The notes beneath the pieces were generated by a model, which did no database searches, was not told the origin of the DNA, and was given only the letters and a program-made list of their open reading frames with translations. Positions 4,672-23,351 of a stretch of DNA of 52,695 nt are shown here, piece by piece (the stretch's first letter is position 1; every line of letters starts with the position of its first letter). The translations under genes and the position numbers were made by a program. Location: assembly GCA_964447385.1 (NCBI GenBank), contig CAYUSV010000002.1, positions 1 to 52,695 of the forward strand. The letters are read 5' to 3'. Source of the DNA: an uncultured Campylobacterales bacterium (GTDB taxonomy: Bacteria > Campylobacterota > Campylobacteria > Campylobacterales > QNZT01).

Positions 4672-4704
4672 GATTGTATTTTACTAAAAAAAATTTAACC
4701 TAAT

Positions 4705-5511: not shown

Positions 5512-5519
5512 TACAGGGA

Positions 5520-5911: not shown

Positions 5912-5955
5912 CCATATAGGGGGAGGGGAACCGTAAGTATATCAGAAAAATTATA

Positions 5956-6618: not shown

Positions 6619-6620
6619 TT

Positions 6621-7034: not shown

Positions 7035-7084
7035 GGTTTCTCCGATATATAGATAGGCGACATTCTAGCAAAAGTTCTTGAAAA

Positions 7085-7100
7085 TGGCATAGAGTGTGCT
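7085..7100 (+). promoter_or_regulatory. candidate sigma-54 promoter (TGGCAT-N5-GTGCT)
   Basis: GG (7086-7087) and GC (7098-7099) are separated by exactly 10 nt, as in the -24/-12 consensus TGGCAC-N5-TTGC. Lies 42 nt upstream of the ATG at 7143. AGGAAA RBS at ~7131. Confidence 0.45.
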
Positions 7101-7142
7101 TTTAAATTAAGGACACCTTAAATAAATGTTAGGAAACTTCTT

Positions 7143-9143
7143 ATGAAAAAACACCATTTAATCAATTTTTTAATTTTGCTATACATATTTTCAGCAAATG
7201 CATATGCATGGAAAGTTGAAAAAAGCTCTGTAGTACAATTAAAACTTACAAATAACGGAGACTTAGGTATCGGCACAGAAACTCCCGCAGCTAAACTAGA
7301 AGTACAAGGAAATATCAAAATAGTTGATGGAAATCAAAGCGATGGGTATGTTTTGACTTCAGATGCAAATGGATTAGCAACTTGGAAAAGCTCATCAGGA
7401 GGTGGTGCATCATCGATTAATGATTTGAGTGATGGAAAAACAATGTCCACTTCTATGTTTTTAGGAACTAATGCTGGTGTAGATACTAATAATACTGGTA
7501 TATACAATATTGGTATCGGTACAGAGTCTTTGTATAGCAACACGGACGGAACAAATAATATTGCAGTAGGATACCGTTCGTTAAAATTTAATACAAGAGG
7601 AGAATACAATACAGCGCTAGGAGGACGAAGCTTATATAGTAATATATCTGGAATGTATAGTGTTGCGTTAGGTCATAAAGCACTTTTTTCAAATACAACA
7701 GGAAATCAAAATGTTGCTATTGGGGTTAATTCCATGGCTACTTCAACTACAGGAGGAAATAATACAGCAATTGGATATCAAGCTTTAAATAAAAATCTAA
7801 CAGGAAGTAATAATACAGCAATTGGACATAGAGCACTCTACAACAATACAGAAAGTTACAATACGGCAACTGGATTTCGTGCTTTGTATAGTAATACTAT
7901 AGGAACTCATAATGTTGCGATGGGATATTCTGCCTTATCTAAAAACACAGAAGGAAACAATGGTACAGCAGTTGGTTATCAAGCTCTTAATCGTAACACA
8001 ACTGGAAATAATAACACAGCAACTGGACTTGAATCTTTAGGATATAATACAATAGGGAGTAATAACACTGCAATGGGAAACCAAGCTCTTAGGGATAATA
8101 CAACAGGAGACAATAACACTGCAATAGGAAATCAAACTCTTAGGTCTAATACAATTGGTATTAATAATGTAGCAACAGGATATCAAACTCTTAGATCCAA
8201 TACGATAGGTAGCTATAATACAACAGGTGGGTATAGAGCTATGTATAATAATATAGATGGCAATAAAAGTACCGCTGTAGGATATCAAGCTCTATATAGC
8301 AATACAAGCGGTAACAATAATAGTGCAAATGGATATGGGGCATTACAAAATAATACAACAGGTAATGATAACACTGCTACTGGATATTATGCCTTACTCA
8401 CCAATGAAACAGGAAGCTCAAATACGGCAACTGGATATGGAGCACTGCAAAATAATACTGATAGTAGTAATACCGCAATTGGATATAAGACACTACATAA
8501 TAATACAAGTGGTGGAGATAACACAGCAATTGGTCTTAAGACACTATTTTTAAATGAAACAGGAAATTTTAATACTGCAATTGGTCACTCAGCTGGTTAC
8601 AAATCTACCGGTGATGGAAATGTGTTTATTGGTTATAGAGCCGGTTATAATGAAACAGGTTCAGATAAACTATTTATAGACAATACAGATACAGTAGATC
8701 CTCTGATATGGGGAGATTTTAGTAATAATTGGTTAAGTGTAAATGGAGATTTGACAGTAACGGGTCCTTTAAATGTAAATGACAATGTAACAATAGATGG
8801 GGATTTAACTGTAAATGGTAATATCACTGCAACTGGCACAATTACCCCTTCTGATCGTCGCTTAAAAAAAGAGATTCAGACAATTGATAAAGCAGTAGAT
8901 AAAATTAACAGACTTCGAGGTGTTAGTTTTAAATATAAAAAAGATGATCGTCCAAGTATTGGTTTGATTGCACAAGAAGTTGAAGAGGTTTTCCCTGAGC
9001 TTGTGAGTGAAAATAAGAATGGATATAAAGGAGTGCAGTACCAAAACTTAGTTGGTGTGCTTATAGAGGCAGTAAAAGAGCAAAATAGAGAACTAAAAAG
9101 TTTAAAAGCTCAAATTGTAGAGTTAAAAAATAGTATAAAATGA
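7143..9143 (+). CDS. secreted tail-fibre-like repeat protein with C-terminal intramolecular-chaperone (peptidase S74-type) autoprocessing domain
   Basis: Signal peptide (..FSANA/YA). GIGTETPAAKLEVQG N-terminal motif. 23 x 17-aa NTAIGYxALxxNTxGxx repeats. C-terminal ..SDRRLKKEI..L.GVSFKYK....IGLIAQEVEEVFPELV....GVQYQNLVGVLIEAVKEQ + coiled coil. Its stop overlaps the next start (ATGA at 9140). Confidence 0.8.
   Translation: MKKHHLINFLILLYIFSANAYAWKVEKSSVVQLKLTNNGDLGIGTETPAAKLEVQGNIKIVDGNQSDGYVLTSDANGLATWKSSSGGGASSINDLSDGKTMSTSMFLGTNAGVDTNNTGIYNIGIGTESLYSNTDGTNNIAVGYRSLKFNTRGEYNTALGGRSLYSNISGMYSVALGHKALFSNTTGNQNVAIGVNSMATSTTGGNNTAIGYQALNKNLTGSNNTAIGHRALYNNTESYNTATGFRALYSNTIGTHNVAMGYSALSKNTEGNNGTAVGYQALNRNTTGNNNTATGLESLGYNTIGSNNTAMGNQALRDNTTGDNNTAIGNQTLRSNTIGINNVATGYQTLRSNTIGSYNTTGGYRAMYNNIDGNKSTAVGYQALYSNTSGNNNSANGYGALQNNTTGNDNTATGYYALLTNETGSSNTATGYGALQNNTDSSNTAIGYKTLHNNTSGGDNTAIGLKTLFLNETGNFNTAIGHSAGYKSTGDGNVFIGYRAGYNETGSDKLFIDNTDTVDPLIWGDFSNNWLSVNGDLTVTGPLNVNDNVTIDGDLTVNGNITATGTITPSDRRLKKEIQTIDKAVDKINRLRGVSFKYKKDDRPSIGLIAQEVEEVFPELVSENKNGYKGVQYQNLVGVLIEAVKEQNRELKSLKAQIVELKNSIK
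7503..8663 (+). repeat. 23 tandem degenerate 51-nt (17-codon; four units 48 nt) coding repeats
   Basis: Counted unit by unit in the translation (residues 121-507). Neighbouring units such as 8050-8200 are visibly similar at the DNA level. Confidence 0.85.
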
Positions 9144-11029
9144 AAAAGTTTGTTTTTATTATGGCATTTTTTCCTCTTTTGCTAAGTGCTAGATGTATAA
9201 GTAGTTATAGTGAAGATTTTACTCAAATCTGTGAAGAACATGTTGTAGTAGCAGAGGCACATGAAGCTGCTTGTTGTATTCAGCTTGGTTTAAATGCAGT
9301 AAATAGAAGTGGTGGTTGTTATAACTGGGACAACAATATCACAACAAAAACGGCCAACAAAAGCTTTGATTTAACAATTTTGGCAAATGATACCCTCTCT
9401 TCTTCACCCTTAAAGGATACAAATATAACCAAACTTGAGCTTTTAAGCTTTAGTGATGCTTTATGTACGACACAATATGCAACTGAAACTATCTGGAATG
9501 ATAGTGGAAAATCAGATATACAAGGGTGTTTTGAGCCAACAACTGCTTTTACACACACAAAAGCAATAAAATGTGCAAAAATAAGAGTATATGCTACACA
9601 TGATGATAATGATTTTAATGCTACTTCATCTGATACTTTTTCCATAAAACCTGATAGATTTGAGTTTATCATTTCACAAAGTGGAAAACTAATAGCTCAA
9701 AGAAATTACACAGTAGGTGTTAAAGCACTAGAATATGCAAACAGTAATGAGGTAGAGGATTATAACATTACTATTTTACCGGCTTCTAACAAGTATTTTA
9801 GAAATGGTAGTGATGGCTTGGCGATGGCTGGGAGTTTTGTACCAAGTACTAGTTTTGCTTTTGCAAATGGAGTGGTAGCAAATACAACTCTTAGTTTTGA
9901 CAATGTTGGTATCATTGGACTAGAGTTAAATGATACAACATGGAGTGAAGTTGATAGTGATGATACGCCTTTAGTAAAAAGAAGAATTTATCTTGAAGAG
10001 AATTTATCTTTTATACCAGATAGATTTGATATAAATTTTACTTTAACTCCAACGATGAAAAATTATGACAATAAAACATTTACCTATTATGCTGATGACA
10101 CTGTTAATATGGGGGCAAATTTAAAAAACCTTACCCACACCATTACCGCACTTGGAAAAGATGGAGCTATCATGACAAATTATCAAAATCCACAAACTAC
10201 ATATTTTGCAAATGATATAGATTTTCTACTAAATTTAAATATAGATCAAAATCCAACTCTTTTACCAGATATAAATGAAAATGTAACAAAAGATTTAAAC
10301 TTTACAGGAGGAGTTGCGACATTAACATACAGTGGTGTAAAATTTAATTTTGGCAGGGAAAAAAATGTAAGTAAAAATCCGCTCTTAGTAGATGGAACAA
10401 ATAGTGACATAAACATAACAACAACGGATAGTATTGATAGTGGTGTAAAAGGAGATATTCTACAAACTTTTGAAAACAATGCAACCTTTTATTATGGCAA
10501 AATACAAACCAAAGATATAAAAACAGCGATCTCTCCAACTACTGAGAGTTTAATTACTGAAGTCTATTGGGATGGTAGTGGTAGCAGAGTCTTTCCTTCT
10601 ACATTTGTGCAAAATACGACCTCTTGGTATACAAATGTAGATGACGATACAATTTCCACTTTAATAGATGGAGATTTCACTCCAATGAATAAGAGAAAGA
10701 TCGAAACTCCTCTCTTAGGTGTAACCATCAGCGTAGATTCACCAAATCCAACCAATGGAGAGATCGGTTATACTATCACAAAATCAGATACTACTAAGAC
10801 TCAAAAAGTTTATTATCATGTAGATATACCTATTTGGTTATGGTATAGCAGATATGAGGATTATAACTTTAGTACAGATAGTACTTGTGCTTCACATCCA
10901 TGTTTTGAGTATATTTTTGAGGCAGAAGATACGACTTCTGGTATTAAAAGTGGAAATTTTAAAGGTAGTAAATTTGATAATAATTTTGACTCGAAAATAG
11001 AGAAAAAGGCGATAAAGTTGATGAGGTAA
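9140..11029 (+). CDS. large secreted Cys- and sequon-rich protein, unknown function (positional candidate for pilus-associated adhesin, MshQ/PilY1-like role)
   Basis: 629 aa. N-terminal signal-like MKKFVFIMAFFPLLLSA. 12 D/E-x-N-x-S/T sequons by manual count. Translationally coupled to the fibre gene. No motif recognised. Confidence 0.6.
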   Translation: MKKFVFIMAFFPLLLSARCISSYSEDFTQICEEHVVVAEAHEAACCIQLGLNAVNRSGGCYNWDNNITTKTANKSFDLTILANDTLSSSPLKDTNITKLELLSFSDALCTTQYATETIWNDSGKSDIQGCFEPTTAFTHTKAIKCAKIRVYATHDDNDFNATSSDTFSIKPDRFEFIISQSGKLIAQRNYTVGVKALEYANSNEVEDYNITILPASNKYFRNGSDGLAMAGSFVPSTSFAFANGVVANTTLSFDNVGIIGLELNDTTWSEVDSDDTPLVKRRIYLEENLSFIPDRFDINFTLTPTMKNYDNKTFTYYADDTVNMGANLKNLTHTITALGKDGAIMTNYQNPQTTYFANDIDFLLNLNIDQNPTLLPDINENVTKDLNFTGGVATLTYSGVKFNFGREKNVSKNPLLVDGTNSDINITTTDSIDSGVKGDILQTFENNATFYYGKIQTKDIKTAISPTTESLITEVYWDGSGSRVFPSTFVQNTTSWYTNVDDDTISTLIDGDFTPMNKRKIETPLLGVTISVDSPNPTNGEIGYTITKSDTTKTQKVYYHVDIPIWLWYSRYEDYNFSTDSTCASHPCFEYIFEAEDTTSGIKSGNFKGSKFDNNFDSKIEKKAIKLMR

Positions 11030-11070
11030 TACATCCATAAAAACGGAATACAATTTGCTATATATCCATC

Positions 11071-11712
11071 ATGAGAGCTGGATTTAACTTAATTGAACTT
11101 ATTTTTACTATTGTTATTATGGCTGGTATATTTGTGGTTATTCCAAAGATTATTTTTGCTACAAACAAAAGTGATACCTTTGCCCTAAAACAGGAGGCAT
11201 TTTTTAACGCTATCTCACTTACCAATATCGCCTCTTTTCTTGCATGGGATGAAAATAGTACTCAAACTTTGTCTATTTTAGCAACTTCTGATGATATGAT
11301 AGCTTGTGATAAGAGTACATTTTTACGCTCTGGTGGATTTTTAAGCTCATATGGCAGAAATTGTGAAGAAGACTTTAATGCCTCAACAATTGGCTCAGAT
11401 GGGGAAAGCGATTATCTACTATTTAATGATATAGATGACTTTGATGGTGAGAGTATTGATGTAAATCTTAGCACAAAAACAAAATATAAAATTTTTACAC
11501 AAGTGCGTTATTTAGATGATAATATTTTTAGTGTTAGTGGTAATAAAATGACAATTGCACTTGACAACTCTTCTCGCATAGCAACATCAAATATTAAAAA
11601 ATTTAAAGCAACTGTTAGTTATGCAGGAAAAAGAGGGGATAAAAACATCTCCTCTTTTTCCTACTATTCAACCAATATCGGGCAAATCACATTAAATAGT
11701 GAGCCATGGTAA
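11071..11712 (+). CDS. minor prepilin-like protein
   Basis: N-terminus MRAG/FNLIELIFTIVIMAGI: G/F cleavage site, Glu at +5, hydrophobic helix. 213 aa. Confidence 0.75.
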   Translation: MRAGFNLIELIFTIVIMAGIFVVIPKIIFATNKSDTFALKQEAFFNAISLTNIASFLAWDENSTQTLSILATSDDMIACDKSTFLRSGGFLSSYGRNCEEDFNASTIGSDGESDYLLFNDIDDFDGESIDVNLSTKTKYKIFTQVRYLDDNIFSVSGNKMTIALDNSSRIATSNIKKFKATVSYAGKRGDKNISSFSYYSTNIGQITLNSEPW

Positions 11713-12611
11713 TGAGAAAAGCTTTTACTATGGTAGAGCTTATCACAACGATTGTGATCATGGGGATTTTAGCAGGAGGTACATATATATCTTTGGCAAA
11801 TCTTTATACAAAAAGTGCAAAATCAAAAGCAATAAGTGAATTATCGTTTGATTCAATTCTAATTTCAAATCAAATTTCAGCACTTCTCTTTCACAGAGTT
11901 CCATCTACGGTTATCGGCTATGATGCCCAAACTGGAAATTTTGAGTCGATCTATAGCATGGGCGCTAATTACACAATTTTTGAGTGGATTGCAACGGATT
12001 TTGAAGAGTATAAAGCAAAAAAATATAGTAGTTTTGTGGATTTTGAGAAATCAGACAAAAATACAAATTTACTCTACTCGCCAGATACAAATATATCTAC
12101 TGTTAGTAGTGATGCATTGGTATTTGCAGGCTCTTTTGATGAGGGTGGTGTAGTTTATGGCAGTGATTTTAATGACTCTTTTGGTTGGCATGGAAATAGT
12201 AGTGATAAGATATATGATATCAACAGTAGTTCCAGTGATAATGAAATAAGACTAACAGATAAACCCTCAAAAATTTATGAAAAATATTATCTACTAAAAG
12301 GTGCTTTTGCTCTTGCAAGATATGCAGATATCAATCAAAGTGCAAATTGTTTAAGTGATCTAAATATCACTTTAGGAGATGATACGCTTCTTTTGTTTTA
12401 TGATTACTATCCATACAAAGGCAAAACTTTTTGTGCAGATACTAGCGGAGATATAAATGGCAGTGTTACTCTTCTTTCAAACGAAGTTCAAGGTTTTGAG
12501 TTAGATTTCGTTAATGGTAATTTACAGTTTAATTTAACTCTAAAAAGAGAGGTACGAAAAAGAGGTAAAAATTTAACTATTCAAATTTCAAAACAGAAGG
12601 TGATATTTTGA
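11712..12611 (+). CDS. minor prepilin-like protein
   Basis: MRKA/FTMVELITTIVIMGILAGG class III signal. Preferred ATG at 11712 overlaps the upstream TAA (TAATG). The track start at 11706 adds MV. Confidence 0.75.
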   Translation: MRKAFTMVELITTIVIMGILAGGTYISLANLYTKSAKSKAISELSFDSILISNQISALLFHRVPSTVIGYDAQTGNFESIYSMGANYTIFEWIATDFEEYKAKKYSSFVDFEKSDKNTNLLYSPDTNISTVSSDALVFAGSFDEGGVVYGSDFNDSFGWHGNSSDKIYDINSSSSDNEIRLTDKPSKIYEKYYLLKGAFALARYADINQSANCLSDLNITLGDDTLLLFYDYYPYKGKTFCADTSGDINGSVTLLSNEVQGFELDFVNGNLQFNLTLKREVRKRGKNLTIQISKQKVIF

Positions 12612-13021
12612 TGCGAAGTGGTTTTGGGATGATTCAGGTTATATTTTTTATGCTTATTTTATCTGGTATTTTAGCAATCTCTATGAGATATGCCTCAATC
12701 ACTACCAAGCAGACACAAGATTTATATATCAAAGAACAAGCTTCTCTTTTTATGCAAAGTGCAATTGAGTTGGCACTGCTTGGAATTAGTTCACATGATT
12801 ATAACTCTAGTGGATTTATTGAAGATATAGAGGTTATATCTGATGATAAAAGGTTTATTGCAGACATCAATATCACTACCTACTATATATATGGTGTAAA
12901 TATTGATACAGAAGTATCTAGTGGAATGATAAACTTAGATATTGTGGTTGAAACAAACAATACTCACCCCAAAAATAGTAGAAAGATTAGAATTACAAAG
13001 AGGAGTTTACAAAAATTATGA
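12611..13021 (+). CDS. minor prepilin-like protein lacking Glu+5 (GspK/PilX-like feature)
   Basis: MRSG/FGMIQVIFFMLILSGI has Gln instead of Glu at +5. ATG 12611 overlaps the upstream TGA (TGATG). The track start at 12608 is TTG. Confidence 0.7.
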   Translation: MRSGFGMIQVIFFMLILSGILAISMRYASITTKQTQDLYIKEQASLFMQSAIELALLGISSHDYNSSGFIEDIEVISDDKRFIADINITTYYIYGVNIDTEVSSGMINLDIVVETNNTHPKNSRKIRITKRSLQKL

Positions 13022-13473
13022 AAAGTGCATTTTCTATGATAGAACTTATCTTTATAATAGTTATTATAGGTATTTTGGGTGCAACGATGCAGATGAATAT
13101 GCCTGATAATAGACTCTTTAGTGATATAAACTTTATCACTCAAAAAATAAAATCAAAACAGATTTATGCACTCTCTTATGATAATTTTGATTATGAAAAT
13201 AGTCAATTTATTGATAACTCTACATGTATTACAATAAGTAGAGATTTTTTAAATGAAGATGAGAGAAACAGTTCAAAAGCAAATCCTTACCAAATTAGCT
13301 CTTATACTACTCTATCTATAAGTGATGAAAATCTCTGTTTTGATAATTTAGGAAGAGTCTATAAATTAAATAATTTACTAAAATTGCCGATAGAGTTAAA
13401 TATAACCTATAAGAATAAAACAAAAACAGTAAATATCATGCCACTAAGTGGCAGTGTTGTAGTAAAGAAGTAA
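13018..13473 (+). CDS. minor prepilin-like protein
   Basis: MKSA/FSMIELIFIIVIIGILGA class III signal. ATGA overlap with the upstream ORF. Confidence 0.75.
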   Translation: MKSAFSMIELIFIIVIIGILGATMQMNMPDNRLFSDINFITQKIKSKQIYALSYDNFDYENSQFIDNSTCITISRDFLNEDERNSSKANPYQISSYTTLSISDENLCFDNLGRVYKLNNLLKLPIELNITYKNKTKTVNIMPLSGSVVVKK

Positions 13474-13476
13474 GAG

Positions 13477-14964
13477 ATGCCAAAAATTATCAACTATATC
13501 AATTTGCAAAATAGCCAAACTTTCTCTTTTGATAAATTAGTTAATGATAAGGCAAGTTTTAAAAATAGAAAAACTCCAGTAGGGGCAAGGTTTCTTTATG
13601 GCGATATAATTTCACATAGTTTTAAAATAGCAGATAACCTCTCAAAACAAGAATTACTTGTCAAGATAGAGCTTAAAATGTATGAAGATATAGGATTGGA
13701 TCCGACAAAAACATACCAAATTTCCTATATTCAAAAAGAGGTAGCGTTAAATAGTGAAATTCTTTTGGAAGCTTTTGCAGTTGATAAAGATGCAGTTAGC
13801 AACAAGTACCAAAATTATGTTAAAAAGAGTAAATATATAGATTTTATCGCTATTCCTTTTTTAGTATTTCAAACGCTATACACAAACAAAACTTTAGAAC
13901 CTAAAAATGACATATTTATCTATATCTCATATGATGAAGCGTTTACCACCTCCTATAAAGACGGTAACTATATATCTTCTAAAAGAATTAAAACTATTGA
14001 TGATATGGTACACGATCTTGGTAGCAGAAATATCACTATCAGTAGTGAAGAGCTTTATGAAATTATCACGACAAAAGGACTTAAAAAAAGTAGTTATGAA
14101 CTTTTACAATATGAGCTATATGAGTATCTAGTAGAGACATTTGAAACTCTATTTTCAAAGATAAAAAACTTAAGTCTACACAACAGAAATGTTTATAGTT
14201 TTACCCAGATTGATAGAGTCTTTTTTACTTGTAATCAAAAAAATGTGCCACATCTGCAAGAGCAGGTACAAAGTTATGTAGAAAATGCAGAATTTAAAAC
14301 GCTAAATTTTTTACAAACAAAAACAGTTAATGTATTGGATGCAATTAGTTCATCATATATCAAAGATAAGTTATCACAAAATGATCATGATCATAATGTT
14401 ACCCTCTTTAAGCCAAAAGCACCTTTTTATAAAAGCGAAGTTGGAAAGTTTACTTTTGCAACAGTCGCTTCGGCGCTTATTTTATCAATTTATCCTATAT
14501 ATTTACAGCTTGAAATATCTTCAAAAAAACAGGAAAATGAGATACTTATAGATAAAGAATTACAGATTAGTAAAACCTCAAAAAAGTTTCAACTTAAATT
14601 AAAAAAGATTAAAACCCAAATTTCCCAGTATAATCAAAAAAAAGAGATAGATCAAAAAAAACTACAGAACCTTCAATCTATTGCGAATTCTCTTCTTTTG
14701 CTTAAATCAAAAGATACAAAATATACAGATATGATTTTAAAGATCAATAAAATTCTAGGTAGATACCATCTCAGTATCGATAAAATTACCCAAACTGATA
14801 CTCATGCACTGAATTTAGAGTTATCATCAAAAAAAGATAAACGAGATACAATAGCTCTTTTTATGAAAGATCTTTTAAACAATGGTTTTAGCTCTGCTAT
14901 ATCTTCAGAAATAACTCTAAAAGATGATGATATTTATAAAAGTATCGTTACGGTAAAGAGGTAA
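13477..14964 (+). CDS. MshI-like pilus assembly protein (PilM-like cytoplasmic part + TM + coiled coil)
   Basis: 495 aa. One TM (FTFATVASALILSIYPIYL) followed by a K/Q-rich coiled coil. First position of the I-J-K-L-M-N-E-G order. Confidence 0.5.
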   Translation: MPKIINYINLQNSQTFSFDKLVNDKASFKNRKTPVGARFLYGDIISHSFKIADNLSKQELLVKIELKMYEDIGLDPTKTYQISYIQKEVALNSEILLEAFAVDKDAVSNKYQNYVKKSKYIDFIAIPFLVFQTLYTNKTLEPKNDIFIYISYDEAFTTSYKDGNYISSKRIKTIDDMVHDLGSRNITISSEELYEIITTKGLKKSSYELLQYELYEYLVETFETLFSKIKNLSLHNRNVYSFTQIDRVFFTCNQKNVPHLQEQVQSYVENAEFKTLNFLQTKTVNVLDAISSSYIKDKLSQNDHDHNVTLFKPKAPFYKSEVGKFTFATVASALILSIYPIYLQLEISSKKQENEILIDKELQISKTSKKFQLKLKKIKTQISQYNQKKEIDQKKLQNLQSIANSLLLLKSKDTKYTDMILKINKILGRYHLSIDKITQTDTHALNLELSSKKDKRDTIALFMKDLLNNGFSSAISSEITLKDDDIYKSIVTVKR

Positions 14965-14969
14965 ATTAG

Positions 14970-15596
14970 ATGACAACAGTAGAAAAATTTGAAAATTATC
15001 TAAAAAAGGTGAAACCAGCACAAAAAATTTTAATATTTTTAATGCCTTTGATTTTTTTTGGTGGAATTTTTTTTATGATGATTTTACCTATGCAAGAAGA
15101 AGATATAGAGATGCTCAATGCCCAAAATAGCAAACTTTATGCCAACATAAAAAGAAAATCATCAAAAACAGTGAAAAAAAAGATACAAAAATCCAAAAAA
15201 GAACTTTTAGATCTTAAAGAGAAGGTTCAAAAAGATCATGATTCACTCAGCTTTTTATATGCTAAACTTACTAATCTGGAAATTTTAGAGTTTAGCCAAG
15301 CGCAGTGGGCTGCAACGCTTGATGATATTTTGAAAAAATCTTTGAGTTTAAATATCAAAATTAAATATATCAAAAATAGTGACTCAGAAACTAAAAAAGT
15401 ACAAGAGAAAATTGTACCTAAAAAGTATGTTGAAATTAGAGGAAGTGCAAAATTTAGCGATGCATTAGAGTATCTGAATTTTATAGAAAATAGACAATTT
15501 TTAGTAGATATCAAAAATATTCAGATGAATAGAAGTGAAAATTTGCAAGATATTGACTTTGTTATCAATTTTACCATTTATGGAGTAAATATATGA
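14970..15596 (+). CDS. MshJ/PilO-like bitopic assembly protein
   Basis: 208 aa. N-terminal TM (ILIFLMPLIFFGGIFFMMIL), coiled coil, C-terminal globular part. AAGAGG RBS. Confidence 0.5.
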   Translation: MTTVEKFENYLKKVKPAQKILIFLMPLIFFGGIFFMMILPMQEEDIEMLNAQNSKLYANIKRKSSKTVKKKIQKSKKELLDLKEKVQKDHDSLSFLYAKLTNLEILEFSQAQWAATLDDILKKSLSLNIKIKYIKNSDSETKKVQEKIVPKKYVEIRGSAKFSDALEYLNFIENRQFLVDIKNIQMNRSENLQDIDFVINFTIYGVNI

Positions 15597-16024
15597 AAAT
15601 TTTTATACTTTTTAGTTTAACTCTCTCTTTTCTTTTTTGTGATGCTAAACTTATTGCAAATATTGATAAAACTTTTCAAGAGGTTATAAATCAAAGCAGA
15701 GCCAAAAAAGTCAATGATATTAAGGTTGATTATGATCCATTTAATATAAAAACATCAAAACCAACAACCAAAAATGTAGCGAAACTCAACAACCAAAAAC
15801 AATCAAAACCTAAAAATAGTTCAAAAAAACCAGTTTTAAGTATGATTTTGAATAAAAAAGCTTTTATAAATGGTAAATGGTATAAAGAAGGTGGAAAATT
15901 TGCCGATTATGCGATAAGAGAAATAAATCAAGATATTGTAATTTTGGAAAAAAATAGTAAATATTCCACATTAAAACTTCCATTGACAGATACCGTCTTG
16001 ATAATACATCAGGAGATAGAGTGA
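15593..16024 (+). CDS. MshK/PilP-like small secreted protein
   Basis: 143 aa. Signal peptide, K-rich linker, C-terminal ..AFINGKWYKEGGKFADYAIREINQDIVILE.. ATGA overlap upstream, GTGA overlap downstream. Confidence 0.45.
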   Translation: MKIFILFSLTLSFLFCDAKLIANIDKTFQEVINQSRAKKVNDIKVDYDPFNIKTSKPTTKNVAKLNNQKQSKPKNSSKKPVLSMILNKKAFINGKWYKEGGKFADYAIREINQDIVILEKNSKYSTLKLPLTDTVLIIHQEIE

Positions 16025-17406
16025 AGATATTTGTAGCTATTGTTGTTCTATTTATGAGTATCAGTTTACACGCAACATGTCAAAGTAAATTTTTCTCATT
16101 TAAAGTCAATAGCACAAAAAGCGCTCCAGGGACAATCTTAAATGTCTTAGAGAGTCTCTCAAGTGAGTGTAAAATGAGTATTATATTTAAAGATGATACA
16201 GCGAGAGAGATGACAGAAAAAAAGATCAGTTATCTTAGTGTTAATGATTTTACACTTGAAGAGATTTTAGATCTGCTTTTGAGTGAAAACAATCTTTTTT
16301 ATACATTAAGCGATAGAAATGTCTTAAAGATATCATATTTACAGACTAAAACATTTTTTATAGATTATGTAAGCTTCACTGATCGAAGTAGTACTTCAAA
16401 CAGAACTATTCAAACAGGTTCAAATGATGGTGGTGATGGTTCAACCTCTTTAAACTCTACTAGCTCATTTAGACTCTGGGATGAGATAGAAAATGAGATG
16501 AAAACTATTTTAAACAGAGATGGAGACACTTATAGCTCTGAAAATACAATCATAAATCAAGATGCAGGTTTAGTCACTGTAACTGGAACCAAAAGACAAA
16601 TTGATCGTATGCAAAAGTATATTGATATTCTTATGGATAGATTGCATAAGCAGATTTTAATAGATGCGAAGGTTATCGAAGTCACATATGCGCAGGATCA
16701 GACAATAGGTATTGATTGGAGTAAATTTGAAGCTACTTTAAATGGTACAGCAGATGGATCAAAGGGGACAGGGATTATAAACACTCTTAGTGATCCGACA
16801 TATCTCTCAAAATACAATTTTACAATTGCAGGTCTTATAGATTTTTTAAAAACTCAAGGAGATGTAGATATCGTCTCAAATCCAAAAATACTCACACTAA
16901 ATAACCAACCTGCTATCATAAATGTTGGTGAAGAGAAAAATTATAAATATACAACAGGTGTTACAACAACAGCAACAACAGCAGGCACAGTACAAGTACC
17001 ACAGTTTGAAGTTGGTTCAACTTTTGTAGGAGTTACGCTCTCAATTGTACCTGAAGTCACTAAAGATGATTTCATTATTTTAAAAATAAATCCATCAATT
17101 AGTGAAATATCAAAACAACATGTAGATGAAAACGGTGTTCCAAACTTAGCTCCTGATATAAAAATCAAACAACTCTCTTCAGTAGTAAAAGTAAAAAATA
17201 ATAAAAAAATATTACTAGGAGGACTAATTCAGAGAAAAAGTCAAGAAAACATTACAAAAATCCCAGGTTTGAGTGCTATACCTATTTTGGGAAATGTTTT
17301 TAGGAGTAAAAAAACAGTTAATACTAAGAGTGAATTGATTATAGTTATAACGCCAAAACTTATTCGAGGTGATGAGAATGAACCTACCTTGGAGGATTTG
17401 GACTAA
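16021..17406 (+). CDS. mshL: secretin (MshL/PilQ/GspD family)
   Basis: Secretin C-domain motifs NNQPAIINVGEE, IPGLSAIPILGNVFRSKK, SELIIVITPKLI. Signal peptide present. GTG start. Confidence 0.85.
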   Translation: MKIFVAIVVLFMSISLHATCQSKFFSFKVNSTKSAPGTILNVLESLSSECKMSIIFKDDTAREMTEKKISYLSVNDFTLEEILDLLLSENNLFYTLSDRNVLKISYLQTKTFFIDYVSFTDRSSTSNRTIQTGSNDGGDGSTSLNSTSSFRLWDEIENEMKTILNRDGDTYSSENTIINQDAGLVTVTGTKRQIDRMQKYIDILMDRLHKQILIDAKVIEVTYAQDQTIGIDWSKFEATLNGTADGSKGTGIINTLSDPTYLSKYNFTIAGLIDFLKTQGDVDIVSNPKILTLNNQPAIINVGEEKNYKYTTGVTTTATTAGTVQVPQFEVGSTFVGVTLSIVPEVTKDDFIILKINPSISEISKQHVDENGVPNLAPDIKIKQLSSVVKVKNNKKILLGGLIQRKSQENITKIPGLSAIPILGNVFRSKKTVNTKSELIIVITPKLIRGDENEPTLEDLD

Positions 17407-17445
17407 ATAAGTAATGTTCCTATTACTTAACCTTAAAGAGGAAAC

Positions 17446-18252
17446 ATGAATCAATACGCTAGAGCAAAAGATCTATTTAACGATGATTTTGATTTAAGTG
17501 GGTATTTTGACTCTTTGACCTTCGAGTATGCAAAAAAGAGTTTAGTCGATGCTATCACTGCACATGACACACCTTTAGTGTTTGTTTTGGGTAGTCCAGG
17601 AAGTGGAAAAAGTTTTTTGTTAAATTATATCACCCAAAAAGTTAAAGATGTCAGGGTAGCGAAGTATTTTACCCATCCATACTTTGATGATAAAGAGTTT
17701 TTGGAGATTCTCTTATCTCTTGCAGGTAAAAACATCGGACGAAACGAATTTACAACCGAAGCGTTAATTTCACAACTGAGAAGAAGCTTTAGCAATCTTG
17801 AATATACGATTTTTATCGATGAAGCACAACTTTTAACAGAAGAGCAAATAGAGCTTATTAGAATTTTAAGTGACCAGAAAATCTTTCAATTTGTTTTAGC
17901 TATGCATGAAAAAGAGGGAAGATATATCTTACAAAAGGATCATTTTAAATCTCGCACAAATAGGGTAGTAAAAATCGAACAACTCCAAGATCATGAAGTA
18001 ACCAGATATATAGAACACCGCCTAATCTCAAACAATCTATCAGAACTAGCATCTGAGTTTAAAAAAAGACACATCCAATACATAAGTCAATATGCAAAAA
18101 GGAACTTTCGAACAACCAAAAAATTAGTCCGAACTCTTTTTGAAATTATGAATATCGCGCACAAAGAAAATCTCTCTAGCAAATATACAAAAGTGAGTGA
18201 AAGAACATTAACTATGGCAGCTATAGATACAGGACTTTTAGATGTTAAATAA
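17446..18252 (+). CDS. mshM: ExeA/MshM-type AAA ATPase
   Basis: Walker A GSPGSGKSF, Walker B IFIDEAQ. 268 aa. Sits directly after the secretin, as in msh operons. Confidence 0.75.
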   Translation: MNQYARAKDLFNDDFDLSGYFDSLTFEYAKKSLVDAITAHDTPLVFVLGSPGSGKSFLLNYITQKVKDVRVAKYFTHPYFDDKEFLEILLSLAGKNIGRNEFTTEALISQLRRSFSNLEYTIFIDEAQLLTEEQIELIRILSDQKIFQFVLAMHEKEGRYILQKDHFKSRTNRVVKIEQLQDHEVTRYIEHRLISNNLSELASEFKKRHIQYISQYAKRNFRTTKKLVRTLFEIMNIAHKENLSSKYTKVSERTLTMAAIDTGLLDVK

Positions 18253-18922
18253 TAATTTTAATGAACTTGTCAAAAAATATGAAAAATATAGAGGTAAAAG
18301 AAGAGATAAAATGCTTCTTAGTACATTGCTTGTTTTAGCGATATTAGCTGGTGGTTATTATTTGGTAACAAATAGCGGTTTTATCACACAAAGTTTCAAA
18401 AAAACTACACCAGAGTCACAAAAGAGTGGAACTATTGTAGATACTCAAATAGCTGATGAAACAACAGAAGATAACCCGGTACAAGAGATTAAAACACACA
18501 AAGAAGAGAAAGCTGAAAAACCACTCCAAAGAGTTAAGGTAGATACACCAAAAACTGAAGAGTTGCCAAATAAAGTCTATGATCGTACCACTAAAAAAAT
18601 AGAAAATACAAATCCATTTCAACTAAAAGTCAAGGAGAGAAAAAACCTATATAAACTCTTAACAGATGATAAAAAACAAAATAGTTATCAATCTGCTATA
18701 AGTGTGGCTCAGTTTTATTTTGAAGAAAAAAATTATGATCAGACAATTATCTGGTCTGTAAAAGCAAGTAAAAAAGATCCTAGAGAGAGTCTTCCGTGGA
18801 TTTTATATGCAAAATCAAAAGCTACACAGGGTAAAACAAAAGTTGCAAAAAAAGCACTCGCTATCTATTTAAAACATACCGACTCAAAAAAGGTACAAGA
18901 TTTGCTAGATACTTTGAAATAG
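18242..18922 (+). CDS. MshN-like bitopic protein (TM + C-terminal TPR-like helices)
   Basis: 226 aa. TM LLSTLLVLAILAGGYYLV, charged linker, C-terminal helical repeat (..AISVAQFYFEEKNYDQTIIWSVKA..). 11-nt overlap with mshM. Confidence 0.45.
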   Translation: MLNNNFNELVKKYEKYRGKRRDKMLLSTLLVLAILAGGYYLVTNSGFITQSFKKTTPESQKSGTIVDTQIADETTEDNPVQEIKTHKEEKAEKPLQRVKVDTPKTEELPNKVYDRTTKKIENTNPFQLKVKERKNLYKLLTDDKKQNSYQSAISVAQFYFEEKNYDQTIIWSVKASKKDPRESLPWILYAKSKATQGKTKVAKKALAIYLKHTDSKKVQDLLDTLK

Positions 18923-18959
18923 GATCATTTTAAACTAAATGATCCTCAAATTTTGAGGT
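18921..18959 (+). promoter_or_regulatory. two overlapping hairpins between the mshN-like ORF and mshE; the second pairs with the mshE Shine-Dalgarno
   Basis: AGGATCATTT(18921-30)/AAATGATCCT(18937-46) form a 10-bp stem. CCTCAAAATTTTGAGG (18944-59) is a perfect 16-nt palindrome. Its GAGG is the RBS 9 nt before the ATG at 18969. Confidence 0.5.
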
Positions 18960-18968
18960 AATTTAGAT

Positions 18969-20633
18969 ATGCGAAAAACGGTACGAATTGGTGATATCCT
19001 TATAGAAGAGGGAAAAATCACCCAAGAACAACTCATGCATGCTCTCAGCGTTCAAAAGGGGAGTAACTTTTCAAAAAAACTTGGTGAAATTTTTGTCGAT
19101 GAAGGGCTTATCAGTGAAAAAGAGTTTGCTCAGGTTTTAGCTAGTCAACTTGATTTTGAGTTTATTGATCTTTATGGTACCAATATTAATTTTAACACCT
19201 TAAAAAACTTTTCACTAAATATGCTTAAAAGCGCAGATGCTCTTGTGATAAAAGAGGATGAAGATTTTATCCATATAGCAATCTCTGATCCTTTGAATTA
19301 TGATCATATGGAGTTGTTGGAGCGAAATATAGTCATAAAACCTATAAGATACTATATCTCTTTAAAATCAGATATCAAACATGTATATGAGAGATTTGAG
19401 ATCATAGAGACTACACAATCATTGATGCAAAAAGTAAAAAATGAGATAAATTCTAAAGAGTTTAAATTAGACAATGAACAGAGTTCTATCATGCAGCTTA
19501 TTGAGCAGATTATCAAAAGTGCTGTAAGAAATGGTGCTAGTGATATTCATATAGAGCCAAACAACAAAGATGTCTCTGTTAGAAATAGAGTTGATGGAGT
19601 TTTAAGAGAAGTTTTTATCTTGGATATCGATATATACAATGCACTAGCTTCTCGTATCAAAATTTTGGGAAATCTTGATATTTCTGAAAAAAGAAGATCA
19701 CAAGATGGAAGATTTTCACTAGAAGTTAATGGCAATATATATGATTTTAGGCTCTCAACAGCACCTACACTTCACGGAGAGTCAATTGTACTTCGAATTT
19801 TGGATCAGCAAAAGGTTCTTTTAAAACTTGATAAATTAGGCATGAGTGAGACAAACTTAAAAAAATTTCAAGCACTACTTGATACTCCATATGGTGTTGT
19901 TTTTGTAACAGGACCCACAGGAAGTGGTAAAACAACCACACTTTATGCTGCACTAAACGAGATAAAAAGTATCGAAAATAAGATAATCACTATCGAAGAC
20001 CCTATTGAGTATCAACTGCCACTTGTGCAACAAATACAAACAAATGAGAAGATAAATTATACATTTAACCATGTTTTAAAATCAGTCCTGAGACAAGATC
20101 CAGATATAATCATGGTAGGTGAGATAAGAGACGATGAAACTCTAAATACAGCAGTTGGTGCCTCTTTAACGGGTCACTTGGTATTTTCAACTCTACACAC
20201 CAATGATGCGCCGAGTGCTATTACAAGATTGGTTCAAATGGGATTACAATCATATCTTATTGCTGATTCTCTTATTGGGATTGTAACTCAAAGATTGGTT
20301 AGAGAAATTTGTCAAAGTTGCAAAGAGTCACATAAACCTCAAAATACTCTTATTGAAAAAGTTAAAAAATATCTACCTGAGTCTTATATGTTTTATCACG
20401 GTAAAGGGTGTACAAAATGTAGTTTTAGTGGTTATCGTGGAAGAGTTATGATTTGTGAGATATTGCAGATAAACGATACGATATCTAGTCAAATCTCTGA
20501 AGAGAAAAACAGACATGAGATCTATAAAGAGGCGCTTAAAGGTGGATATGAACCTATGCTCATAGATGGTCTTAAAAAAGCACTACAATCAACAACATCT
20601 TTAGAAGAGGTGCTTAGAGTTGTTAAAATATGA
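18969..20633 (+). CDS. mshE: GspE/PilB-family assembly ATPase with MshE-type N-terminal domain
   Basis: Walker A GPTGSGKTT, Asp/His boxes, tetracysteine CQSC...CTKC. N-terminus carries two tandem RLGxxhhxxGhhxxxxLxxxLxxQ-like motifs. Confidence 0.9.
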   Translation: MRKTVRIGDILIEEGKITQEQLMHALSVQKGSNFSKKLGEIFVDEGLISEKEFAQVLASQLDFEFIDLYGTNINFNTLKNFSLNMLKSADALVIKEDEDFIHIAISDPLNYDHMELLERNIVIKPIRYYISLKSDIKHVYERFEIIETTQSLMQKVKNEINSKEFKLDNEQSSIMQLIEQIIKSAVRNGASDIHIEPNNKDVSVRNRVDGVLREVFILDIDIYNALASRIKILGNLDISEKRRSQDGRFSLEVNGNIYDFRLSTAPTLHGESIVLRILDQQKVLLKLDKLGMSETNLKKFQALLDTPYGVVFVTGPTGSGKTTTLYAALNEIKSIENKIITIEDPIEYQLPLVQQIQTNEKINYTFNHVLKSVLRQDPDIIMVGEIRDDETLNTAVGASLTGHLVFSTLHTNDAPSAITRLVQMGLQSYLIADSLIGIVTQRLVREICQSCKESHKPQNTLIEKVKKYLPESYMFYHGKGCTKCSFSGYRGRVMICEILQINDTISSQISEEKNRHEIYKEALKGGYEPMLIDGLKKALQSTTSLEEVLRVVKI

Positions 20634-21871
20634 AATATTTTGAAATAGTCTACATGATAGGAGGAGAGAAAAGCTCAACTATCATCCAATCCCTACACAA
20701 GATAGACGCTCTAAAGCAGTTTCAAAATCGCACTTTGGGCATAATGGTCTCAGTGGATGAGGTAAACGAACCTCTAATGATGCGTTTAGAAAATTTTACA
20801 AAATCAATCAAAAACAGATCGCTAAAAAAACGAGTCAAACCAGAGCCTTATATCGCTTCTCTTCGACAATTAGGTGTCATGCTTGATGCTGGAATTCCTA
20901 TAAATCAATGTTTTTTGGAAGTTGTAAATACAACCGACAACAAACAGATAAGAGAAATTTTTAGACAAATCGCTCTAAAAGTAGAATCAGGAAGTAGCAT
21001 ATCTCAGACATTTGCTGATTTCTCGTTTGAGCTTGGAAGTCTCTCTTATTCTCTTATCTCCCTTGGAGAGCAGACAGGTGCTTTGGCAGAAGCGGTGATA
21101 AAACTCTCAAATATATTGGATGAGATAGAACAAAATAGGAAAAAATTAAAAAAAGCTCTTCGTTACCCTTTTATTGTCATGCTTGCTATGGTTGGTGCTT
21201 TTATCACTGTTATAAAGATGATTGTTCCACAGTTTAAAGAGATGTTTGAAGAGTACAACAGCGATCTTCCCCTGCCTACTCAAATACTTTTAGGTATTGA
21301 GGATTTTATAAAAGAGAGTGGTTTGCTTATCTTAATCTCAATTATAGGCATTATCATAACTCATATTATACTCTATCGCCAAAAAGGTAGATACAAATAT
21401 CTAATGGATAAATATATCTTAAAAATCTATTTAGTAGGGAAAATTACCCGCTTATCTATGACAGGAAGATTTATGTATGTTTTTAACTCTCTTACAAACT
21501 CAGGAGTACCAATCATAAAAGCTCTCACTATTTCAGAAAATATAGTAGAAAATAGTTATCTTAAGGAGCGATTTGAACAGATAGAAGACTCTATCGAAGA
21601 GGGTAAGACACTAACCCAAGGATTTACAGAGAGTGAACAATTTGAAAATATGATCATACAGATGATCAAAGCCGGAGAGACAAGCGGATCTCTTAACAAA
21701 ATGCTTGAAAAAGTACATATCTACTACTCTGCCAAGTATAATGACCTAATCGACAATATCTCAACCTATATTGAACCAATCATGATAGCAGCTCTTGCTG
21801 GTTTTTTAACTCTATTTGCTCTTGGTATCTTTTTACCTATGTGGTCTATGGCTGAAGTAATTGGACAATAA
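20630..21871 (+). CDS. mshG: GspF/PilC-family inner-membrane platform protein
   Basis: 413 aa. Duplicated GspF domain (..LGVMLDAGIPI.., ..LTNSGVPIIKAL..) and three TM segments. ATGA overlap with mshE. Confidence 0.88.
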   Translation: MKYFEIVYMIGGEKSSTIIQSLHKIDALKQFQNRTLGIMVSVDEVNEPLMMRLENFTKSIKNRSLKKRVKPEPYIASLRQLGVMLDAGIPINQCFLEVVNTTDNKQIREIFRQIALKVESGSSISQTFADFSFELGSLSYSLISLGEQTGALAEAVIKLSNILDEIEQNRKKLKKALRYPFIVMLAMVGAFITVIKMIVPQFKEMFEEYNSDLPLPTQILLGIEDFIKESGLLILISIIGIIITHIILYRQKGRYKYLMDKYILKIYLVGKITRLSMTGRFMYVFNSLTNSGVPIIKALTISENIVENSYLKERFEQIEDSIEEGKTLTQGFTESEQFENMIIQMIKAGETSGSLNKMLEKVHIYYSAKYNDLIDNISTYIEPIMIAALAGFLTLFALGIFLPMWSMAEVIGQ

Positions 21872-21876
21872 TATAT

Positions 21877-22515
21877 TTATGTACATGTTATACTAAATGC
21901 CATACCAAGGTCAGAGCTAGAAAAATCAACAGAGTTGGTAGTATTAACATCAATGAGCATAAAATCACCACTTATAATTTGTCTCTTCTTGCTTAAGGAG
22001 CTTTCAACATAACATTTATTTGTAGAGTTTGTATCTACCATATAAAGCCAAAAGTCATTTTTATCAGGTTTTCCCTCTATGTCTCTTGAGTTATTTGTTG
22101 AACTAAATTTAACTCCAACAGTAGGATCAGAAGCTTTAGCTGTATAAATTCTGTAGATATTTGTACTATTATTTTCAAACTGCTTTTTAAAACCACTTTT
22201 GCCAGAAGTTTTTATCAATGCTCCTATATCGTCACCGTTTCGTGATAGATTATAAGGATAACCACTAGATGCTAAATCTGTCTCTATATCATCATCTACA
22301 CCATCATTGTTCCAATCAAAATCATCATCATTTACACTCCAAGTCCCATGAATTGACTCTAACGCTGCCGTAATAGCTGCTACGCTTGAGAGTTCTGTGG
22401 ATCTTTTTGCTTGATCTTTGATATTGGTAAATTTTGGTATAGCTACAGAAGATAGTATACCGATAATCACAATTACAAATATAAGCTCAACCATAGTAAA
22501 AGCATTTCGCTTCAT
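21877..22515 (-). CDS. type IV pilin (major-pilin candidate 1)
   Basis: MKRNA/FTMVELIFVIVIIGILSSVAIPKF class III signal. 212 aa. Two C-terminal Cys (..NKCYV.., ..SITCT) could form a D-region disulfide. AAGGAA RBS. Confidence 0.85.
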   Translation of the reverse strand: MKRNAFTMVELIFVIVIIGILSSVAIPKFTNIKDQAKRSTELSSVAAITAALESIHGTWSVNDDDFDWNNDGVDDDIETDLASSGYPYNLSRNGDDIGALIKTSGKSGFKKQFENNSTNIYRIYTAKASDPTVGVKFSSTNNSRDIEGKPDKNDFWLYMVDTNSTNKCYVESSLSKKRQIISGDFMLIDVNTTNSVDFSSSDLGMAFSITCT

Positions 22516-22547
22516 AAAGTTTCCTTGGATAGTATTTATATACTATT

Positions 22548-22574
22548 ATATCGACAAGGTAAACTAAATATATA
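22548..22574 (-). promoter_or_regulatory. candidate sigma-28 (FliA-type) promoter TATA-N15-GTCGATAT
   Basis: Minus strand reads TATA-TATTTAGTTTACCTT-GTCGATAT, ending 32 nt before the pilin ATG. The -10 octamer is identical to those at 27629 and 31492. The -35 has one mismatch to TAAA. Confidence 0.5.
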
Positions 22575-23350: not shown

Positions 23351-23351
23351 A

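Follow-up and report, generated by a model that had tools for sequence, protein, structure and literature searches.

A 52,695 nt stretch of DNA from an uncultured Campylobacterales bacterium (assembly GCA_964447385.1, contig CAYUSV010000002.1, forward strand), termed here the window, carries a gene cluster whose identity as a type IV pilus system of the mannose-sensitive haemagglutinin (MSH or MSHA) type is well supported. The cluster has 14 open reading frames (ORFs), all on the + strand at positions 7143-21871. Neighbouring ORFs overlap or are at most 46 nt apart, and the junctions, in order, are -4, 41, -7, -4, -4, 3, 5, -4, -4, 39, -11, 46 and -4 nt. A preliminary description of this DNA gave the same map of 14 tightly joined ORFs. 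From left to right these encode a phage-tail-fibre-like protein, an MshQ-type protein of 629 aa, four minor pilins and eight proteins in the order MshI-J-K-L-M-N-E-G. A pilin gene on the - strand converges on the cluster, 5 nt past the last + strand ORF. Prepilin-like ORFs are designated pp followed by their length in amino acids; pilin212 and pilin229 are pilins encoded on the - strand, and tm137 is a membrane protein.

Machine genes

Gene families were examined with Pfam and NCBIfam and by direct comparison with the canonical MSHA cluster of Aeromonas caviae (our locus L051, NZ_AP026896.1, positions 330620-360308). In the hhalign comparisons, family profiles built from related loci were aligned with Aeromonas ORFs (profile versus sequence). 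The PLSDB entry that holds the Aeromonas cluster is named 'Aeromonas caviae plasmid pKAM479_3', but at 4.9 Mb it is evidently a chromosome.

The secretin (461 aa, 16021-17406) matches Pfam Secretin at 2.4e-43. Its best NCBIfam model is TIGR02519, MshL, with 238 bits (1e-70), followed by GspD with 161 and PilQ with 117, and the secretin family aligns with Aeromonas MshL at hhalign P=99.9. Next to it is an AAA+ ATPase of the MshM/ExeA type (268 aa, 17446-18252), with an AAA_22 match of 7.5e-15, Walker A GSPGSGKS and Walker B IFIDEAQ. It has no peptidoglycan-binding domain. Its family aligns with Aeromonas MshM over 242 columns (P=96.9), and homologues carry the JGI name 'ATPase ExeA'; the best 120 matches of an ATPase profile search are close family members only.

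The extension ATPase (MshE type, 554 aa, 18969-20633) gives T2SSE at 2e-130, the MshEN domain PF05157 at 1.2e-8 and NF053729 at 63 bits (cutoff 38). Two 24-residue MshEN motifs for binding of cyclic di-GMP (c-di-GMP) are legible near the N-terminus, RIGDILIEEGKITQEQLMHALSVQ and KLGEIFVDEGLISEKEFAQVLASQ, and Walker A GPTGSGKT and a tetracysteine motif are present further on. The N-terminus matches the structure of the Vibrio cholerae MshE N-domain, 5htl, at 4.8e-12. When the protein is compared with the Aeromonas caviae genome, the ATPase of the msh cluster is the best of seven matching places. MshEN domains are also found in PilB of some type IVa pilus (T4aP) systems. The inner-membrane platform of the MshG/GspF type (413 aa, 20630-21871) has two T2SSF domains (4.6e-47) and matches Aeromonas MshG at 1.7e-56 by BLASTP. 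The top NCBIfam matches for the E and G proteins are GspE and GspF.

The remaining machine proteins are placed by fold, architecture and position. The MshI-position protein (495 aa, 13477-14964) has no Pfam or NCBIfam family, and an exact look-up gave no match. An AlphaFold2 (AF2) model made from a 22-sequence alignment (pLDDT 85) has a cytoplasmic PilM-like actin-fold domain, a transmembrane (TM) helix with a long coiled coil, and a periplasmic ferredoxin-like domain of the PilN/GspL-C type. Foldseek places this model with PilM of Pseudomonas aeruginosa and Myxococcus xanthus (5eox, 5eou, 3jc8_M; ~1e-11) and, further down, with the cytoplasmic domain of PulL (5tkw, 1.5e-4). A PilM-PilN/GspL-like architecture has been reported for MshI (PMC4624765, Table 1). 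The MshJ-position protein (208 aa, 14970-15596) is a PilO-like bitopic membrane protein; searched against the PDB, its family profile has a single significant match, to M. xanthus PilO (3jc8, 1.4e-4). The MshK-position protein (143 aa, 15593-16024) is small, secreted and lysine-rich; a YDPF motif is conserved, and the C-terminal domain bears a weak likeness to GspB (Pfam T2SSB 0.0096, NCBIfam GspB 0.0034). Nine of 15 family members have T2SSB matches, the best 6e-4 and all below threshold, and the family profile has no match in the PDB. Since the Aeromonas MshI and MshK ORFs likewise match no Pfam family, the missing family match of the window's I and K proteins is uninformative and does not count against their assignment. 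The MshN-position protein (226 aa, 18242-18922) combines a single TM helix, a charged linker and, at its C-terminus, a tetratricopeptide repeat (TPR) domain with ANAPC3/TPR Pfam matches. Over residues 154-225 the N-family profile matches consensus TPR proteins, with values as low as 1.7e-29.

The preliminary description had read these eight genes as an MSHA-type machine in the I-J-K-L-M-N-E-G order. That reading stands: MshL is the best secretin model, the ATPase carries MshEN, the M protein resembles MshM, the I model is PilM-PilN-like, J matches PilO, and N has TPRs. The description had also named membership of the I, J, K, M or N proteins in unrelated families as a result that would speak against it. 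The profile and structure searches point to AAA_22/MshM for M, TPR for N, PilO for J, PilM for I and, weakly, GspB for K, and to no unrelated family.

Minor and major pilins

The four ORFs that had been described as prepilin-like all encode class III signal peptides: RAG|FNLIE in pp213, RKA|FTMVE in pp301, RSG|FGMIQ in pp137 and KSA|FSMIE in pp151. The first, pp213 (11071-11712), is a minor pilin of the MshD or GspI-PilV type. It has the prepilin motif MRAG|FNLIE and a TIGR02532 match, and its family is conserved in 35 loci. The family aligns over its full length (166 columns) with the Aeromonas MshD-position ORF at hhalign P=97.3, and BLASTP gives 6e-6. The second, pp301 (11706-12611), has N_methyl (1e-4) and TIGR02532 (2e-5) matches. 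It is assigned to the MshO or GspJ-PilW type by position and size only: it lies between the D-type and K-type pilins and has 301 aa versus 309 aa for Aeromonas MshO, and the hhalign alignment of its family with MshO is limited to the N-terminal helix.

The third, pp137 (12608-13021), is of the MshP or GspK-PilX type and has Gln in place of Glu at position +5. In its family +5 is Gln in 33 of 42 members and Glu in none of the 42. A missing Glu5 is the hallmark of the apical K-type (GspK/PilX/MshP) minor pilin, and V. cholerae MshD, MshO and MshP have been equated with GspI, GspJ and GspK, the gene order being mshDOP (PMC13533445). The fourth, pp151 (13018-13473), is of the MshC or GspH type; it has a weak NCBIfam GspH match (0.017), and its family aligns with the Aeromonas MshC-position ORF over 108 columns (P=95.4). 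Thus pp213-pp301-pp137 keep the MshD-O-P order, and pp151 is MshC-like.

The major pilin candidates are on the opposite strand, as the preliminary description had it. Pilin212 (212 aa, 21877-22515, - strand) has the motif MKRNA|FTMVELIF, two C-terminal Cys residues, an N_methyl match of 4e-5 and N-terminal matches to GspG/PilA; it aligns with Aeromonas MshA/B at hhalign P=98, N-terminally only. A second paralogue, pilin229 (229 aa, 30767-31456, - strand; N_methyl 1.3e-5), is 55% identical to ORFs of two related loci (L010 19927-20574 and L002 19977-20684). Its orthologue in the relatives is the second or third of their tandem pilins, next to the cluster; in the window pilin229 lies ~8 kb from the cluster. 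Pilins of 212-229 aa match GspG by the N-terminal helix only, with 38 bits versus a cutoff of 89. Pilin212 and pilin229 correspond to MshA/B.

The segment between the two pilin genes (22640-30752) holds a DsbD-type gene, two unassigned ORFs, an ATP-binding cassette (ABC) ATPase together with an FtsX-like permease, the gene of NosL, those of a response regulator and a histidine kinase, and an ORF of 173 aa. The ~8 kb separation looks like an insertion or a rearrangement. The residue before the predicted cleavage site is frequently Ala and not the canonical Gly: in 17 of 20 members of the major pilin family, and in 25 of 39 and 33 of 43 members of two minor pilin families. In the window Ala at -1 is found in the ORFs at 21877-22515, 30767-31456, 11706-12611 and 13018-13473. 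This suggests that the prepilin peptidase of the clade accepts Ala at this position.

The MshQ-type protein

The 629 aa protein (9140-11029) has a signal peptide and, in an AF2 model (pLDDT 84), forms an all-beta stalk of immunoglobulin (Ig)-like domains with its last 30 residues disordered in the monomer. Foldseek returns generic Ig/MG-type domain arrays only, with low TM-scores. The protein belongs to a family of 1403 cluster representatives in which the shared module nearly always forms the very C-terminal end of the protein, the proteins being 550-2400 aa long. Two relatives, P0201 (59 bits) and P0226 (46 bits), match Pfam DUF6701 above threshold, and P0201 is named by NCBI a DUF6701 domain-containing protein. 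A literature search on DUF6701 gave no useful result. We take DUF6701 to be the MshQ family, on the basis of the Aeromonas comparison and not of a curated statement. In that comparison a hidden Markov model (HMM) built from 26 locus sequences of the 629 aa family matches a 580 aa ORF in the Aeromonas msh locus at 3.9e-11. This ORF represents the 3' portion of the gene next after mshP, a gene that in that strain is interrupted by an ISAs12-family element. The link emerged with this 3' fragment; with the Aeromonas ORFs as first delimited, hhalign gave nothing. The match to DUF6701 relatives and to the Aeromonas mshQ fragment indicates that the 629 aa protein is of the MshQ type, and we classify it from its sequence as a tip protein of this type in a short form that lacks the head.

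In each of the 26 family members the sequence stops at one common position, with the pattern [GA][IV]K[VLIT][FLM]R, which reads AIKLMR in the window; the Lys at -4 and the terminal Arg are invariant. MshQ has been proposed to be a PilC/PilY1-like tip protein that gives an extreme C-terminal strand to the K-type pilin by beta-strand addition (PMC13533445). The invariant K-x-x-R-COOH end is thus a candidate C-terminal assembly strand and would fit the proposed signal.

Most relatives have a far longer MshQ-type protein, of up to ~2400 aa, and these long forms carry PA14, Laminin_G_3 and pentraxin-type domains at the N-terminus. Like the window, L014, L031 and L043 have short forms, each with a signal peptide of its own.

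Several further observations concern MshQ-type genes. The 629 aa protein and its relatives have a precomputed Pfam family, PF28247, in the protein collection. Locus L005 has an MshQ-type gene for 2438 aa with a leucine-rich-repeat-like N-terminus (58-7371, - strand) that is inverted relative to the rest of its cluster, which may be real or an assembly error. The ISAs12-family insertion sequence in Aeromonas mshQ lies at ~24518-25961 of L051, with probably a second element upstream. An MshM-like locus of Photobacterium sp. GJ3 (L074) has no recognisable MshQ.

Conservation among Campylobacterales

The MshI-position family, which has 52 members in a collection of 5.8 billion proteins, was scanned in 185,579 species genomes, with one genome per species. 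The scan gave 50 related loci, all in Campylobacterales (Sulfurospirillum/Sulfurospirillaceae, an Arcobacter metagenome-assembled genome and Sulfurimonas). The full set of 13 genes, MshQ-type gene through MshG, is present in 21 loci, and all 21 are colinear; in one of these, L005, the MshQ-type gene is inverted. The occurrence of the same 13 genes in the same order in 21 independent loci takes the cluster far beyond chance. Between one and three pilin genes on the - strand follow MshG in 21 of the 27 loci that reach it. A cultured organism, Sulfurospirillum sp. 1307, has the full set of 13 genes in its complete genome; the genome paper does not mention pili.

This synteny bears out the view that such a machine belongs to Campylobacterota. 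It also changes the picture of the upstream genes, which had been described as a non-canonical replacement of mshBACD-OPQ. They are instead MSHA equivalents in a different order, and they are conserved together with the machine genes.

The left neighbours of the cluster are similar in several loci. The gene of the four-TM protein tm137 (6621-7034, - strand) separates rsmE from the cluster in the window, and likewise in L002, L008, L010, L014, L031 and L043, and rsmE adjoins the cluster also in L034 and L048. A fixed chromosomal position in much of the clade argues for vertical inheritance. Some loci have additional genes. In Sulfurospirillum sp. 1307 and a JGI contig (L052 and L053) a DUF433/DUF5615 toxin-antitoxin-like pair lies between the MshQ-type gene and the minor pilins, and a 178 aa ORF lies between N and E (L052: 2952-3541 and 11510-12046; L053 likewise); the window has neither. 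A gap of ~500 bp at the N-E position in many Sulfurospirillaceae loci suggests that the 178 aa ORF is common there.

Comparison with known filament systems

The MSH model of Denise et al. (2019, PMC6668835) has A, E, G, L and M as mandatory genes, arranged in single loci, with no peptidase in the locus. The corresponding products in the window are pilin212/229 and the 554, 413, 461 and 268 aa proteins, recognised by Pfam, NCBIfam, BLASTP and hhalign. The MSH identity is well supported by these mandatory genes, the single locus and the lack of a prepilin peptidase gene in it. A Pfam scan of every window ORF of at least 200 aa gave no Peptidase_A24 and no PilT, in agreement with the preliminary description. 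This is normal for MSH loci (PMC6668835), and in V. cholerae pilT lies outside the msh locus (PMC4624765).

The MSHA systems of V. cholerae and Aeromonas (mshHIJKLMNEGF and mshBACDOPQ) share much with the window. Common to them are the order I-J-K-L-M-N-E-G in one locus, as in L051, a secretin for which MshL is the best model, an ExeA-like MshM, a TPR-bearing MshN, an MshE with the MshEN domain, and MshG. They likewise share the D-O-P minor pilins with a third member that lacks Glu5, a DUF6701/MshQ-type protein, and a single locus without peptidase or PilT. There are also differences. The structural genes of the window are upstream of the machine genes on the same strand, in the order Q-D-O-P-C versus (B-A-)C-D-O-P-Q downstream, and the major pilins are on the opposite strand. 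In addition, MshI is a single 495 aa fusion but separate ORFs in Aeromonas, MshH and MshF are missing, I, J, K and N have diverged past sequence recognition, the tip protein is a head-less form of 629 aa, and there is an extra phage-type fibre gene.

A plasmid of Legionella adelaidensis (NZ_LR134433, annotated mshL) also has four pseudopilin genes directly upstream of I-PilN-J-K-MshL-AAA-N-GspE on the same strand. It differs in having no MshQ-type gene, a GspK-like fourth pilin of 563 aa, and separate genes for PilM-like and PilN-like proteins. Thus a layout with minor pilins first recurs outside Campylobacterales.

The tip module of T4aP (PilV-W-X-Y1/FimU) and GspH-I-J-K of the type II secretion machinery (T2SS) resemble the window in having four minor pilins that include an apical one without Glu5, and a large tip protein is shared whose very C-terminal end is conserved, in keeping with the model of beta-strand addition (PMC13533445). 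The window's tip protein differs in being an Ig-like stalk of the DUF6701 family, with no PilY1 beta-propeller, and in being encoded before the minor pilins. Besides the propeller-less tip protein, the fused PilM-PilN and the third place of PilQ among the secretin models set the cluster apart from T4aP.

The Cts system of Campylobacter jejuni, also a member of Campylobacterales, functions in DNA uptake (ctsR-D-P-X-E-F, with ctsG elsewhere). It has a secretin, a small nucleoside triphosphatase (NTPase), a small membrane protein, a GspE-type ATPase and a platform in the same order and of similar sizes. The genes cj1474c-cj1471c encode a secretin of 472 aa, the NTPase CtsP of 202 aa, CtsX of 195 aa and the GspE-type CtsE of 519 aa (PMC8308473, Table 3). 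This corresponds to the L-M-N-E order, the likeness being one of position and size alone. Type IV pili often serve transformation, and the cluster could accordingly be a competence pilus, the full-length counterpart of Cts, with adhesion secondary or absent. We give this a low, though not negligible, probability. The Cts locus has no known I, J or K genes, no block of four minor pilins and no MshQ-type protein. Pfam scans gave no ComEA or ComEC gene in the window. The I-family scan of the species genomes gave no locus labelled with the genus Campylobacter, and three are labelled only with the family, Campylobacteraceae. Arcobacter butzleri is naturally transformable without ctsP and ctsX, and its E and F genes are apart from the secretin gene. 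The competence pili covered in PMC13533445 lack a large tip adhesin, whereas this cluster encodes a predicted MshQ-type protein, which in relatives has lectin-type heads, and a putative c-di-GMP-binding ATPase.

The Cts work also bears on a statement in the preliminary description that such machines have not been studied experimentally in Campylobacterota. The statement needs qualification: putative MSH systems have been detected in Epsilon-proteobacteria computationally, by genome survey (Denise et al., 2019, PMC6668835), and Cts, with the same local order, has been studied experimentally (PMC8308473).

The phage-tail-fibre-like gene

The first gene of the cluster (7143-9143) is peculiar to the window. 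It encodes a secreted protein of 666 aa with a Sec signal peptide (…SANAYA|W) and about 20 repeats of 17 aa (NTAxGYxALxxNTxGxx), which are 51 nt repeats at the DNA level. The C-terminus is an S74 self-cleaving chaperone domain that begins at PSDRRLKKEI (Pfam Peptidase_S74 9e-19). Matches to PHROG families of virion structural proteins, tail spikes and tail fibres range from 4e-82 to 1e-9, and the best phage relatives are tail fibres of marine podophages, with 35-37% identity. Phage tail fibres and spikes of the endosialidase type share with the 666 aa protein the C-terminal S74 domain with an SDxRxK start and the beta-helical repeats. The 666 aa protein differs in its Sec signal peptide, in the lack of a prophage context and in its place at the head of a pilus operon.

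The fibre gene is co-oriented with the 629 aa gene and overlaps it by ATGA; because of this overlap it is probably co-expressed with the operon. An independent Logan contig, L058, shows the arrangement L31-rsmE-tm137-fibre-629, and the same junctions on an independent contig mean that the fibre arrangement is real. No phage genes, tRNA or Rfam element are found near the fibre gene. A fibre homologue is absent from all 50 related loci, and a metagenome scan gave 13 distant relatives, none of which adjoins pilus genes. The preliminary description had placed a tail-fibre-like protein in the string of pilus genes. The ATGA junction and the S74 and PHROG matches uphold this, but the gene stands outside the conserved system: in this lineage it has been inserted at the operon head, as an add-on rather than a conserved component. 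The possibility that the fibre gene is the split-off N-terminal part of a long MshQ was considered and rejected, as the protein shows no similarity to any long form and has its own signal peptide and S74 terminus.

The position of this gene raises the question of whether the machine is type II-like, with a short pseudopilus that pushes the Sec-exported fibre or other cargo through the secretin. The signal peptide of the fibre and its overlap with the first pilus gene are consistent with this, MshL is the only secretin nearby, and apart from the GspE and GspF matches of the E and G proteins, K and M resemble GspB and GspA/ExeA. However, the fibre is missing from the 50 related loci and its relatives elsewhere never adjoin pilus genes; no GspC/PDZ/HR protein and no GspG-type major pseudopilin were found; the Glu5-less pilin has only 137 aa; the secretin fits MshL over GspD by 238 versus 161 bits; and the tip protein is of the MshQ type. 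Since only this genome has the fibre and T2SS hallmarks are missing, fibre export of a T2SS-like kind is unlikely to be a general function, and we consider the type II-like explanation as a whole quite improbable.

A different role for the fibre is conceivable. Perhaps the MSH pilus of this lineage has exchanged a lectin head of its own for an adhesin from a separate gene, a phage-derived fibre that is Sec-exported and self-trimerising; this is speculative and we think it rather unlikely. The fibre, translationally coupled at the operon start, would then be carried on the pilus tip or exported via the MshL secretin. If true, a receptor-binding fibre of phage origin would here have been domesticated to serve a type IV filament machine as adhesin or cargo.

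Least probable of all, and to be given very little weight, is that this genome retains the cluster only as a remnant, silent or decaying. It would account for the head-less short tip protein, the tandem pilin array split by ~8 kb and the foreign gene at the operon start. Against it, the 14 ORFs and both pilin genes are intact, and the Walker boxes, tetracysteine, prepilin sites and C-terminal K..R are kept. Moreover, short-form tip proteins with a signal peptide recur in the three loci named above, and the same sequence has been assembled from several samples.

Neighbouring genes

The left flank consists of housekeeping genes on the - strand, rsmI, L31, rsmE and the gene of the 137 aa membrane protein, and the right flank begins with the DsbD-type gene. 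G+C content is even across the region, at 27-34%, and tRNA and Rfam scans of the region were empty. Promoter and terminator scans of this AT-rich DNA gave no more than the shuffled expectation and are silent on transcript structure. The right half of the window has two MoeA paralogues (31550-32758 and 50157-51368), MoaA and other molybdenum-cofactor and radical-SAM genes. The best PLSDB match of MoaA is to a Sulfurovum mangrovi replicon, with 72% identity.

A probable MSH pilus, divergent and rearranged

Taken together, we consider it probable that the region encodes one complete MSHA-type type IV pilus system, with the structural and secretory gene sets merged, and that the pilus is adhesive and controlled by c-di-GMP. 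The system is a divergent, rearranged member of the MSH group, the presence of which in the phylum had been flagged by survey. The sole unusual element is the window-specific phage-type fibre gene, the tie of which to the machine is putative.

A number of points weigh against this view. The 238 bits of the secretin are below the MshL cutoff of 250.2. In hhalign no similarity to the Aeromonas counterparts shows up for I, J, K and N, nothing being detectable between N and MshN beyond the TPRs, so that they are assigned by fold, architecture and position. The cluster has no counterpart of MshH or MshF. The 629 aa protein of the window is itself below the Pfam DUF6701 threshold, the link running through family members, and this short form has no recognisable binding head. 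Finally, M and N may not serve the pilus exclusively: an isolated pair of homologues, 80% identical for M and 56% for N, is found in L059 of a related genome (positions 10001-11447; GCA_054012275.1, JBPLSZ010000037.1). The pair is flanked by fumarate reductase/succinate dehydrogenase genes and by rfaD-hldE-gmhA, and the nearest 10 kb hold no pilus gene. The M-N module could be a separate paralogue or act apart from the pilus.

A mode of assembly for an MSH-type pilus can be proposed from established models of type IV filaments. The 629 aa MshQ-type protein would pair via its invariant extreme C-terminus with the Glu5-less pp137. With pp213 and pp301 joining, a tip initiation complex would form, and pp151 would link this complex to the major pilin. 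MshE, activated by c-di-GMP, would then polymerise pilin212/229 on the MshG platform, and the fibre would exit through the MshL secretin, the assembly of which M, N and K would aid. A prepilin peptidase and possibly PilT, encoded elsewhere, would complete the system.

By analogy, the role of the pilus is likely reversible attachment to surfaces or to host or particle glycans. This is suggested by the MshEN c-di-GMP receptor on the ATPase, by the lectin-type heads in the tip proteins of relatives and by the precedent of V. cholerae, where MshE and c-di-GMP control attachment (PMC4624765).

Marine and sediment Campylobacterales (Sulfurospirillum, Arcobacter-like organisms, Sulfurimonas) live attached to particles, mats and animal hosts, and their attachment has been little studied. 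The cluster offers a conserved candidate attachment organelle, probably controlled by c-di-GMP, in which variable lectin-type heads could set surface or host specificity. As Sulfurospirillum sp. 1307 is a cultured carrier, the cluster is directly testable. It also provides a very divergent MSH system in which the proposed rules of the tip complex hold, namely an apical pilin without Glu5 and a conserved C-terminal strand, here a candidate one, on the MshQ-type protein.

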